Shown here: piece after piece, positions 14,173 to 14,689 of the stretch
Layout: each line of letters starts with the position of its first letter
Position numbering within the stretch: position 1 is the stretch's first letter
Source of the DNA: an uncultured Clostridia bacterium
GTDB lineage: Bacteria > Bacillota > Clostridia > Oscillospirales > Oscillospiraceae
Assembly (NCBI GenBank): GCA_947383645.1
Contig: CANDEH010000001.1
Coordinates: 16,230 to 80,229, forward strand
Length of the DNA stretch: 64,000 nucleotides
Direction: 5' to 3'
Program-made: the position numbers and the translations under genes
Notes under the pieces: generated by a model
What the model was told of the DNA's origin: nothing
Seen by the model: the letters and a program-made list of their open reading frames with translations, nothing else
The model's database searches: none

Positions 14173-14192
14173 ATCTATCACCTCCGGTAATT

Positions 14193-14689
14193 CGCTTGAA
14201 GACCGCTGACGCTGGGTCTTCAAGCGAGGGGATTTCGCTGCGCTCCATGCACTCGCTTGCGCTCGCACACTCCGCTCCGCGCAGGGTATTTTTTTCGAAA
14301 ACGCGGTTTCCGAAAAAAATGATTTTAGATTATTTCGCGGCGTGCGCGCCGCGAAACTCTGCGAGGCTTTTGTTTGCGGCCTCAGCCGCAAACTTTGCAC
14401 ACGGCGAGGCCGCAGTGCCGTCGCACGCGCCGGAGGCGCTGTGCGCGTCTCGCCCTCGGCAGAGTTTGCGCCGCAGGCGCAAATAAAATGCAATCGTTTT
14501 TCCGGGGACCGCGTCCTCGGAAAAACACTTTGCGGGCCGCGCTCGGCCCGGTCCTTTTTCTCGGGAATCGGCTTTGCCGCTTCCCGAGAAAAAGCCCCCC
14601 GCAGATAAAATCCTCGTTTGAAATCAAAGATTTCAAACGACACCGCCTTTCTCTCGATTGAAAGCCCAGCGTCAGCGGGTTTCAATCGA
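14193..14689. repeat. multi-hairpin array (family 3), double unit in inverted orientation (alpha + beta)
   Basis: About 10 hairpin modules. The terminal hairpins at 14193-14226 and 14654-14689 carry reverse-complementary apices CCGCTGACGCTGG / CCCAGCGTCAGCGGG. The right terminal hairpin contains the murA stop codon. Confidence 0.8.

Follow-up and report, generated by a model that had tools for sequence, protein, structure and literature searches.

BOX (boxA-boxB-boxC, Streptococcus pneumoniae), ERIC and Correia elements are modular or hairpin-forming repeats in transcribed regions, with orientation-dependent effects on mRNA. Repetitive extragenic palindromes (REPs) carry a conserved 5′ GTAG, are linked to a RAYT transposase, and are without terminal inverted repeats (TIRs) and target site duplications (TSDs). 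REPs and bacterial interspersed mosaic elements (BIMEs) have been reported to influence mRNA stability and to be bound by host DNA proteins (PMC3184786). In bcr1 of the Bacillus cereus group, compensatory base changes maintain a fold like a cruciform in a repeat that resembles a MITE (miniature inverted-repeat transposable element) (PMC3184786). We analyzed a 64,000-nt stretch of DNA (termed the window; contig CANDEH010000001.1, positions 16,230 to 80,229 of the forward strand) from an uncultured Clostridia bacterium of the Oscillospiraceae, focusing on the hairpin-filled spacer between murA and ftsQ. This spacer probably consists of two copies of a mosaic, multi-hairpin mobile repeat rather than a dedicated gene or regulator. 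The repeat family is apparently undescribed, a new family of a known kind of element: no description of it was found in the full-text literature, with the core sequence itself included among the queries.

The murA-ftsQ spacer and its two units

The spacer (499 nt, 14173-14671) lies in the division and cell wall (dcw) cluster, whose gene order in the window is mraZ-rsmH-ftsL-pbp-murE/F-mraY-ftsW-murG-murA-ftsQ-ftsZ. Sixteen inverted-repeat pairs were found inside it, and the 38-nt pair at its ends (14191-14228 vs 14653-14690) is 84% complementary. Folded as RNA in the sense of the operon, the spacer had a predicted energy of -283.8 kcal/mol, compared with -211.7 ± 7.1 kcal/mol for dinucleotide shuffles (z = -10.1). 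The predicted fold comprises about a dozen hairpins, in line with the chain of about 10 given in a preliminary description of this DNA. The layout proposed there (alpha unit to the left, beta unit to the right, in inverted orientation) was recovered, with the end arms complementary as stated above. When units are oriented with H1 first, the module order is H1-H2-H5-H6 in alpha units and H1-Hb-H3-H4-H5-H6 in beta units, and the two spacer units are inverted with H1 facing outward. The features of the locus are as follows.

13411-14172, minus strand: ftsQ, flanking the spacer.
14173-14191, minus strand: ftsQ leader outside the repeat, with ribosome-binding site (RBS) GGAGGTGAT (complement of 14177-14185); the CCGGAGGTGATA motif is also present in relative L130.
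14192-14367, plus strand: alpha unit, antisense to the operon, with H1, GGGGATTTCGCTGCGCTC linker, variable H2, H5, H6 and tail CTCTGCGAGGC; nhmmer match at 14273-14367, E = 3.9e-22.
14192-14227, plus strand: H1a, 11-bp stem (13 perfect pairs here) and apex CCGCTGACGCTGGG.
14288-14320, plus strand: H5a, ATTTTTTTCGAAAAC-GCG-GTTTCCGAAAAAAAT, with the invariant A.C mismatch.
14333-14356, plus strand: H6a, TTTCGCGGCG-TGCG-CGCCGCGAAA.
14368-14451, no strand assigned: central junction between the unit tails, 84 nt, with three GC-rich hairpins (14372-14393, 14403-14422 and 14423-14446).
14452-14689, minus strand: beta unit, sense with the operon, with H1, Hb, H3, H4, H5, H6 and tail CTCTGCCGAGGGC; nhmmer match at 14459-14533.
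14465-14483, minus strand: H6b.
14496-14526, minus strand: H5b, GTTTTTCCGAGGAC-GCG-GTCCCCGGAAAAAC on the unit-sense strand, with A.C kept and the distal stem changed.
14534-14549, minus strand: H4b, GGGCCGAGCGCGGCCC on the unit-sense strand.
14555-14593, minus strand: H3b, with a conserved G.A mismatch below apex GCGGCAAAGCCGA.
14614-14640, minus strand: Hb, TCGTTTGAAATC-TTT-GATTTCAAACGA followed by GGATTTTATC; AT-rich and weak, and the only terminator-like site in mRNA sense.
14654-14689, minus strand: H1b, whose 5′ arm encodes the final MurA residues ISIETR; the murA stop codon TGA (14672-14674) lies in its apex.
14672-15928, minus strand: murA, flanking the spacer.

The alpha unit could be aligned with 30 other alpha copies, and the modules of the beta unit are ordered as in the unit at 52655-52895. 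No repeat of the central junction was found elsewhere in the window. The beta-unit tail TCTCGCCCTCGGCAGAG (14448-14464) shares a 17-nt identity (E = 0.002) with the interior of murA (14770-14786, encoding ...SAEGES...); this identity is probably due to chance, although it lies ~100 nt from the insertion point.

The preliminary description saw no credible coding frame here, and we agree, with one caveat: a minus-strand frame is free of stop codons across the spacer and is fused in frame to ftsQ (mechanical open reading frame 13411-14733). This frame, together with a 201-aa gene called at the spacer in another assembly, could suggest that FtsQ is extended at its N-terminus or that a small protein is encoded separately. 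The likelihood of a coding spacer is nevertheless negligible. GC content at codon positions 1, 2 and 3 of the open frame is 0.57, 0.58 and 0.57, whereas GC3 is 0.86 for ftsQ and 0.90 for murA; a net +50 nt of indels breaks the frame in another strain; the sequence is absent from relatives; and the called product has no Pfam domain. Because the frame has no codon-position GC signal and is shifted by indels between strains, the spacer is non-coding.

Mobility of the family and its entry into the dcw operon

Scans with the H5 core detected homologous units in at least six Oscillospiraceae or Clostridia metagenome-assembled genomes (MAGs) of the genome collection and on 37 metagenome contigs. Loci L001-L112 and L135-L171 were retrieved by exact match to this core, and conservation of the core was therefore judged from secondary and protein-anchored copies only. 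The loci contain 68 distinct family copies, and units range from 170 to 270 nt. Six complete alpha relatives, all from rumen Oscillospiraceae, are 194-199 nt long and have ends GTAACTGTTCAGTACCC and GYAACGATTCAGTAYCC, with 12-14 of 17 positions matching; the 5′ arm of H1 serves as the left inverted repeat. The 8-mers flanking these six copies are identical at 8, 7, 8, 7, 8 and 7 of 8 positions (chance of at least 7 of 8, ~4e-4 each). Alpha, beta, short-beta and H2-less variants occur (H2 is missing from two rumen copies), making the units mosaic palindromes in extragenic transcribed DNA. Because complete relatives carry TIRs and 8-bp TSDs, sites are empty in other genomes and modules are exchanged, the family, as far as sequence comparison can tell, behaves as a mobile, non-autonomous repeat with MITE hallmarks.

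Orthologous spacers differed in length as follows.

L132, L133 and L134 (MurA identity 79-81%): murA-ftsQ 31-40 nt, containing the RBS only; mraY-ftsW 27-98 nt (27 nt in L134).
L130, the closest relative (MurA identity 89%): murA-ftsQ 154 nt, a shortened version of the same array; mraY-ftsW 214 nt.
This species (MurA identity 100%): murA-ftsQ 499-549 nt; mraY-ftsW 214 nt.

MurA ends in ...ARISIETR* here, compared with ...GQIQER* or ...AEITEY* in relatives. MraY ends in ...GRYAFA*, compared with ...GRYI(V)*; its AFA and stop codon come from the 5′ arm of H1. These findings show that, in the ancestor shared by this species and its closest relative, units inserted into the dcw operon right where murA ends, and did so at the end of mraY as well, and that they overwrote the last few codons and supplied new codons and a stop. 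The preliminary description had favored selection on structure over simple copying of a MITE, and had named absence from close relatives as a test; the empty murA-ftsQ sites of 31-40 nt place the outcome on the side of a selfish element.

We considered whether the H1 arms are an inverted target duplication. This was rejected, as the arms follow the family consensus TC-NN-TTCAGAA and are unlike the ancestral ends of murA and mraY. That the element end always includes a stop codon was also rejected as a rule: of the antisense copies, only some have T(A/G)A at this place. The stop codon sits at different places of H1 for murA and mraY.

The array has been remodelled since insertion, through whole-module deletions with short direct repeats at their borders and through exchange of H1 for a family variant. 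In L116 and L118, whose FtsQ and MurA are identical to those of the window, another H1 lies by ftsQ (TCGCCGGAAAC...CTTTCCGGCGA in place of TCGCTTGAAGA...TCTTCAAGCGA) and a 51-nt extra hairpin has a 12-nt direct repeat at its borders, while the remaining spacer is ~3% different. The orthologous mraY-ftsW unit of L130 contains H4-H5, whereas that of the window does not, and CCGRAAAA repeats lie at the borders of the indel. Contigs of the species assembled from short reads end within the repeat. Compared with L130, alignable columns of the repeat were 0.78-0.84 identical (a value inflated by gap placement) with large indels, 4-fold synonymous sites were only slightly lower at 0.68, and the repeat-free murG-murA spacer was 0.92 identical; this comparison gives no clear indication that module content is under local purifying selection. 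Separately, the junction hairpins of L116/L118 are set apart from those at window positions 14372-14446 by clustered C-to-T and G-to-A transitions, about nine of them in 80 nt, the flanking proteins being identical.

An nhmmer profile of the H5-H6 part identified exactly five units in the window, the two of the spacer and the following three.

18587-18758, minus strand: short beta unit in the mraY-ftsW spacer, with H1, Hb, H3 and H6 and without H4-H5; the 5′ arm of its H1 gives the MraY residues AFA and the stop codon.
33548-33752, plus strand: alpha unit between the stop codon of an ABC-ATPase gene and a terminator-like hairpin.
52655-52895, plus strand: beta unit, beginning 2 nt past the stop codon of the rubrerythrin gene.

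Searches for known families gave little. Rfam models at gathering score produced no match to the family in the window and 12 related or foreign loci, and the scans also returned an unrelated cobalamin riboswitch. At E ≤ 10, the best sub-threshold match in the spacer was to the small RNA Atu_Ti4 (31.7 bits; gathering score 40). The preliminary description could assign the family to no named RNA or REP class, and both Rfam and the literature agree with it. No similar DNA was found in the plasmid collection. The phage collection yielded only three short H6-like matches on unannotated faecal contigs, and the scan of viral contigs for the H5 core gave four chance coding matches and one further alpha-like copy.

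If the spacer held genes for trans-acting small RNAs, or a single long non-coding RNA, this would account for a strong, covarying structure and for the sub-threshold Atu_Ti4 match. This reading is very improbable, however. No promoter-like site was found in the spacer, nor an intrinsic terminator (GC-rich hairpin plus U tract): Hb, with 4 GC pairs, was the sole weak terminator-like flag in mRNA sense, and the T and A runs of H5 pair with each other. The copies occur in both orientations and bear TSD and TIR hallmarks, no Rfam family reached threshold, and module content differs between orthologues.

The mobile-repeat interpretation has practical consequences for annotation. Long, hairpin-rich spacers in operons of gut or rumen Oscillospiraceae are to be read as repeat insertions, not as lost genes or riboswitches, and such repeats break short-read assemblies and rewrite the C-termini of essential genes (MurA, MraY).

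Covariation and the nature of the folded strand

H1 copies are present at 14192-14227, 14654-14689, 18724-18758, 33548-33582 and 52655-52689, with apex CCGCT(T/GA)CGCTGGG. The preliminary description had claimed one apex on different paired stems at five sites, and this was verified at all five coordinates. An H1 alignment was made from 35 distinct sequences of the window, other assemblies of the species and related loci. Standard pairs occupied 94.3% of cells, and 10 of 16 pairs were altered on both sides. Double changes were found in 75 cells, compared with 15.6 ± 3.4 after shuffling, and none of 500 shuffles reached 75. When the partner was slid by 1-3 columns as a control, pairing fell to 25-50%. 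In the alpha-unit alignment (31 sequences), H1 and the outer H5 stem covaried likewise; one pair was C-G in 17 sequences, G-C in 11 and U-A in 2. Thus, the covariation of stems around conserved apices that the preliminary description claimed is real and far beyond chance, and intrastrand pairing is maintained.

The pairing is almost purely of Watson-Crick type. H5 had 769 Watson-Crick pairs, 0 G.T and 56 A.C (each copy has exactly one, at a constant position); H6 had 464 Watson-Crick pairs and 2 G.T; and H1 had 3 wobble cells among 385. The window contains two H5 variants, CCGAAAAC-GCG-GTTTCCGG and CCGAGGAC-GCG-GTCCCCGG, with the A.C position unchanged, as expected from the earlier claim that both variants keep the same single non-Watson-Crick position. 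Across copies, including those outside the search pattern, A.C persists on distal stems AAAAC/GTTT, GGAC/GTCC, GGC/GCC and AAC/GTT. Other fixed flaws are the G.A in H3 and a TG bulge in the invariant H1 apex. For H3, the apex GCGGCC(T)TTGGCCGA of the preliminary description was found at 18.6 and 52.7 kb; in the murA-ftsQ copy the apex is GCGGCAAAGCCGA instead.

Stems might also stay paired in the absence of selection, through intrastrand template switching or arm-to-arm conversion, with the variants spread by gene conversion. Double changes that are near-always perfect Watson-Crick, the lack of wobble intermediates, many C-G to G-C flips, the replacement of a whole H1 between strains ~3% different otherwise, and the direct repeats bordering indels would all fit such homogenisation. 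We consider it rather unlikely as the explanation: it would erase flaws, yet the H5 A.C is kept in 56 of 56 copies on five different distal stems, in unselected copies too; the H3 G.A and the H1 TG bulge are kept; and apices are invariant while stems vary. Intrastrand pairing therefore appears to be under selection, since a double-strand-binding protein would not keep the arms complementary and blind palindrome homogenisation would erase the A.C, the G.A and the bulge. The preliminary description had concluded that selection on structure was at work and that the family was not a MITE. The maintenance of intrastrand pairing agrees with the first part. The second, and with it the step from covariation to "not a MITE", does not hold in view of the TIRs, 8-bp duplications, empty sites and module swaps; compensatory change is already on record for bcr1-type repeats (PMC3184786). 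In this family, strict Watson-Crick covariation and conserved mismatches are seen in clear form within a MITE-type repeat; it can therefore be argued that a folded single strand is read by something.

In relatives, the TIRs and 8-bp target duplications show that complete copies spread by cut- or copy-and-paste. On the mobile-repeat interpretation, a transposase would be supplied in trans. Each hairpin would fold within one strand, and its apex and fixed flaw (H5 A.C, H3 G.A, H1 TG bulge) would be read, so that the lower stem only has to pair. The folded strand could be extruded, lie on the lagging-strand template, or be a transposition intermediate. Selection would act mainly on the element's own persistence or spread.

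Within this interpretation, the folded strand is more likely DNA than RNA, at somewhat better than even odds, because wobble pairs are nearly absent, C-G to G-C flips are many and both orientations occur. Variable helices of functional RNAs usually hold a sizeable share of G.U pairs. The complement of the H1 apex (window 14203-14216 and 14665-14678) is GCGAAGC in the 13-nt form or GCGTCAGC in the 14-nt form; the remaining H1 apex positions were set by the search pattern, making the window's two forms the only independent evidence. In phages and plasmids, extraordinarily stable mini-hairpin DNA with the sequence GCGNAGC or GCGNNAGC occurs in primase-dependent single-stranded DNA (ssDNA) origins (Kimoto and Hirao 2026, PMC13037366). 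This likeness favors DNA and may be due to chance, at roughly 1 in 100 given the apices inspected.

The orientation and position of the units bear on a different explanation, in which they are a host-adopted, cis-acting structured RNA of 3′ untranslated and intercistronic regions that shields mRNA from 3′ exonucleases, stalls terminating ribosomes or provides RNase processing sites, and thereby tunes dcw-type operons. Orientation was counted in tandem-gene contexts with a GC3-based gene caller. Twenty-two units were sense and 9 (~29%) antisense (two-sided binomial p ~0.03), and 4 of the 5 window units are sense to the upstream gene. In sense copies a native terminator often lies 3′ of the unit, which is thus placed between stop codon and terminator. 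An extremely stable RNA fold and the reported effects of REPs and BIMEs on mRNA stability (PMC3184786) are in accord with such a role. We consider this cis-acting RNA possible but improbable. Of the 31 copies, the 9 antisense ones include the spacer alpha unit and L135, L137, L151 and L155; these last four have GTAAC-type ends at both termini, and two of them show 8/8 duplications. Antisense copies, again including the spacer alpha unit, sit just upstream of the RBS of the next gene. G.U is nearly absent, and on the sense strand the invariant flaw of H5 reads A.C. Orthologous sites have lost or replaced modules, relatives have empty sites, and the genes upstream of and flanking the units are unrelated to one another. 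In our reading, tightly packed operons leave only the neighborhood of stop codons free. Orientation set by replication direction was rejected, as both orientations occur within the 64-kb window and follow the local genes.

Several observations nevertheless weigh against the units being primarily mobile elements. Mobility was demonstrated in relatives and is inferred for the window copies, at none of which was a recognisable target duplication found. Single window units are without the right-hand inverted repeat and end at AAACTCTGCCGAGGGC; inverted ends within the window are confined to the composite spacer (the 38-nt pair). In all five assemblies of the species (the window and four others), the 52.7-kb unit is fixed and shows almost no variation. 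Neither the window nor ~0.5 Mb of related loci yielded an autonomous element or a transposase with matching ends. Internal hairpins would not be needed by a DDE-type transposase that works on double-stranded ends, which leaves the pairing unexplained by the transposition mode seen. In most sense copies H1 starts 0-4 nt past the stop codon or overlaps it, and this position, together with the sense bias (22:9), fits some effect or filter at the level of RNA or translation. The H6 loop reads C(TNCG)G on the unit-sense strand; each of the four bases occurs at N, and C-G closes the loop in most copies (the closing pair is G-C in window copies 14333-14356 and 33718-33739). It resembles the UNCG family of stable RNA tetraloops and favors RNA.

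Weighing these points, we retain the mobile repeat as the probable explanation. No inverted end pairs 0.7-4 kb apart were found in the window and related loci, and no transposase domains among the ten window proteins scanned. The 8-bp duplication and the GTAA/CTGTT ends may point to an insertion sequence family of the IS66 or IS6 kind. For the host, the effects would include altered C-terminal tails of MurA and MraY. The 499 nt of very stable structure in the murA-ftsQ transcript probably breaks the coupling between the two genes and may stop 3′ exonucleases or give rise to processing sites; the RBS of ftsQ is preserved.

The H5 core in other phyla and comparison with known systems

The 17-nt H5 core CGAAAACGCGGTTTCCG is also found inside a five-hairpin MITE of ~210 nt, where it sits on a covarying 6-bp extension and forms the second hairpin. 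Among the genome-collection matches listed, most non-chance matches to the 17-mer fall in this repeat. Its hosts are Thiohalocapsa and other Chromatiaceae, Sedimenticola, another gammaproteobacterial MAG, Lysobacterales, Desulfurivibrio and Zetaproteobacteria (loci L002-L004, L023, L027, L028, L032, L036, L042, L047, L060, L064, L084, L085, L089, L090, L100, L111 and others). The inverted ends are GGAGACGCTGA... or GGGGACCTYGA... on the left and ...TCAGCGTTTCC or ...CGAGGTGCCC on the right. Flanking 4-bp duplications include CTAA, CTAG, CTGG, TAGA, TTGA, TGAA, TACA and TCAT, and are often CTAA, CTAG or TTAG. A profile of the repeat gave 54 matches in related loci; of the eight without the exact core, two are intact copies that keep the A.C. 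A third multi-hairpin repeat, from other Clostridia or Bacillota MAGs, carries the H5 core (...ctcctcggCGAAAACGCGGTTTCCGcctgcggattaaagtctgcgacgc) and is otherwise unrelated to the window family (loci L012, L013, L035, L041, L045, L053, L055, L057, L074, L094, L104 and L108). No Rfam family corresponds to the ~210-nt MITE or to the third repeat.

The chance expectation for the 17-mer in the genome collection is ~70, and roughly 40 chance-like coding matches are among the matches listed. Recurrence at the consensus of several multi-copy families would, from these comparisons, not be expected by chance; it may reflect descent, capture of the module or convergence on a shared ligand. The core lies inside at least three otherwise unrelated repeat families that differ in their transposition chemistry, with 8-bp duplications in the Oscillospiraceae and 4-bp duplications in the ~210-nt MITE. 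We suggest, tentatively and with low confidence, that the hairpin of H5 (CGAAAAC-GCG-GTTTCCG), whose invariant A.C is G.T on the opposite strand, may be a portable functional module and not a transposon-end sequence. If so, a ligand of the hairpin would be conserved across phyla, with selfish repeats hitching on to it; this ligand could be a universal host factor that works on folded ssDNA or RNA, or a trans-acting mobilisation protein, and the H1 apex, with its likeness to mini-hairpin DNA, may be a second such signal. Were H5 indeed a shared functional module, unrelated selfish repeats would seem to be exploiting a hairpin-binding activity that is widely conserved. The family itself is of moderate interest; the real puzzle is a conserved mismatched hairpin common to unrelated repeats of several phyla.

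Other repeats were also seen in the window. A separate multi-hairpin family has four copies (2909-3071, 4825-5129, 42324-42627 and 48616-48819), with modules such as GAAAGGAACCCAAGAGGGGTTCCTTTC and GACAAATTGCGGCCAAAGGCCGCAATTTG; its apex GCGGCC...GGCCGC resembles that of H3. The short motif AATTCCTAATTCCTAACTCCTAATT is present in four intergenic regions (15999-16048 in the murG-murA spacer, 39795-39830, 61291-61326 and 63321-63356). Two of these occurrences fall in an 86-nt repeat that is 94% identical (61230-61315 and 63260-63345), and the motif is partly missing from the murG-murA spacer of L130, which is otherwise 92% identical. A tandem array of 9-12-nt units (TTCTGGTTCTGATTC...) lies at 51800-51921, upstream of a DegV-family gene.

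Like bcr1, the present units are short, non-coding and dispersed between genes, have target duplications, and are present or absent between relatives (PMC3184786). Unlike bcr1, which is ~155 bp with 5-bp direct repeats, they measure 194-270 nt with 8-bp duplications, consist of 4-6 distinct hairpin modules that are singly gained or lost, and combine Watson-Crick-only pairing with fixed mismatches; there is no sequence similarity. They share with enterobacterial REPs and BIMEs the mosaic palindromic arrays in 3′ and intercistronic regions and the head-to-head pairs. REPs, however, are single palindromes of 20-40 nt, whereas the modules here are heterogeneous and relatives of the window family have TIRs and TSDs. 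No GTAG-type motif was seen in the family alignments; no genome-wide search for RAYT genes was made.

BOX, ERIC and Correia elements are similar in being modular or hairpin-forming repeats within transcribed regions, and differ in hosts, sequences and target duplications. No hairpin shared across phyla is known for any of these three. Integron attC sites and the end hairpins of IS200/IS605 are ssDNA read by structure, make no 8-bp duplication and have their own recombinase nearby. As a candidate for how the present hairpins work, they offer a parallel, in that stems may vary if paired and fixed extrahelical or mismatched bases give strand identity; unlike these systems, no such recombinase gene or boundary motif was found here. 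In mini-hairpin DNA, finally, the complements of the H1 apex correspond exactly to both consensus lengths, and N is the position that varies (PMC13037366). That motif comes from phage and plasmid primase and ssDNA origins (PMC13037366), whereas the H1 apices belong to chromosomal repeats.

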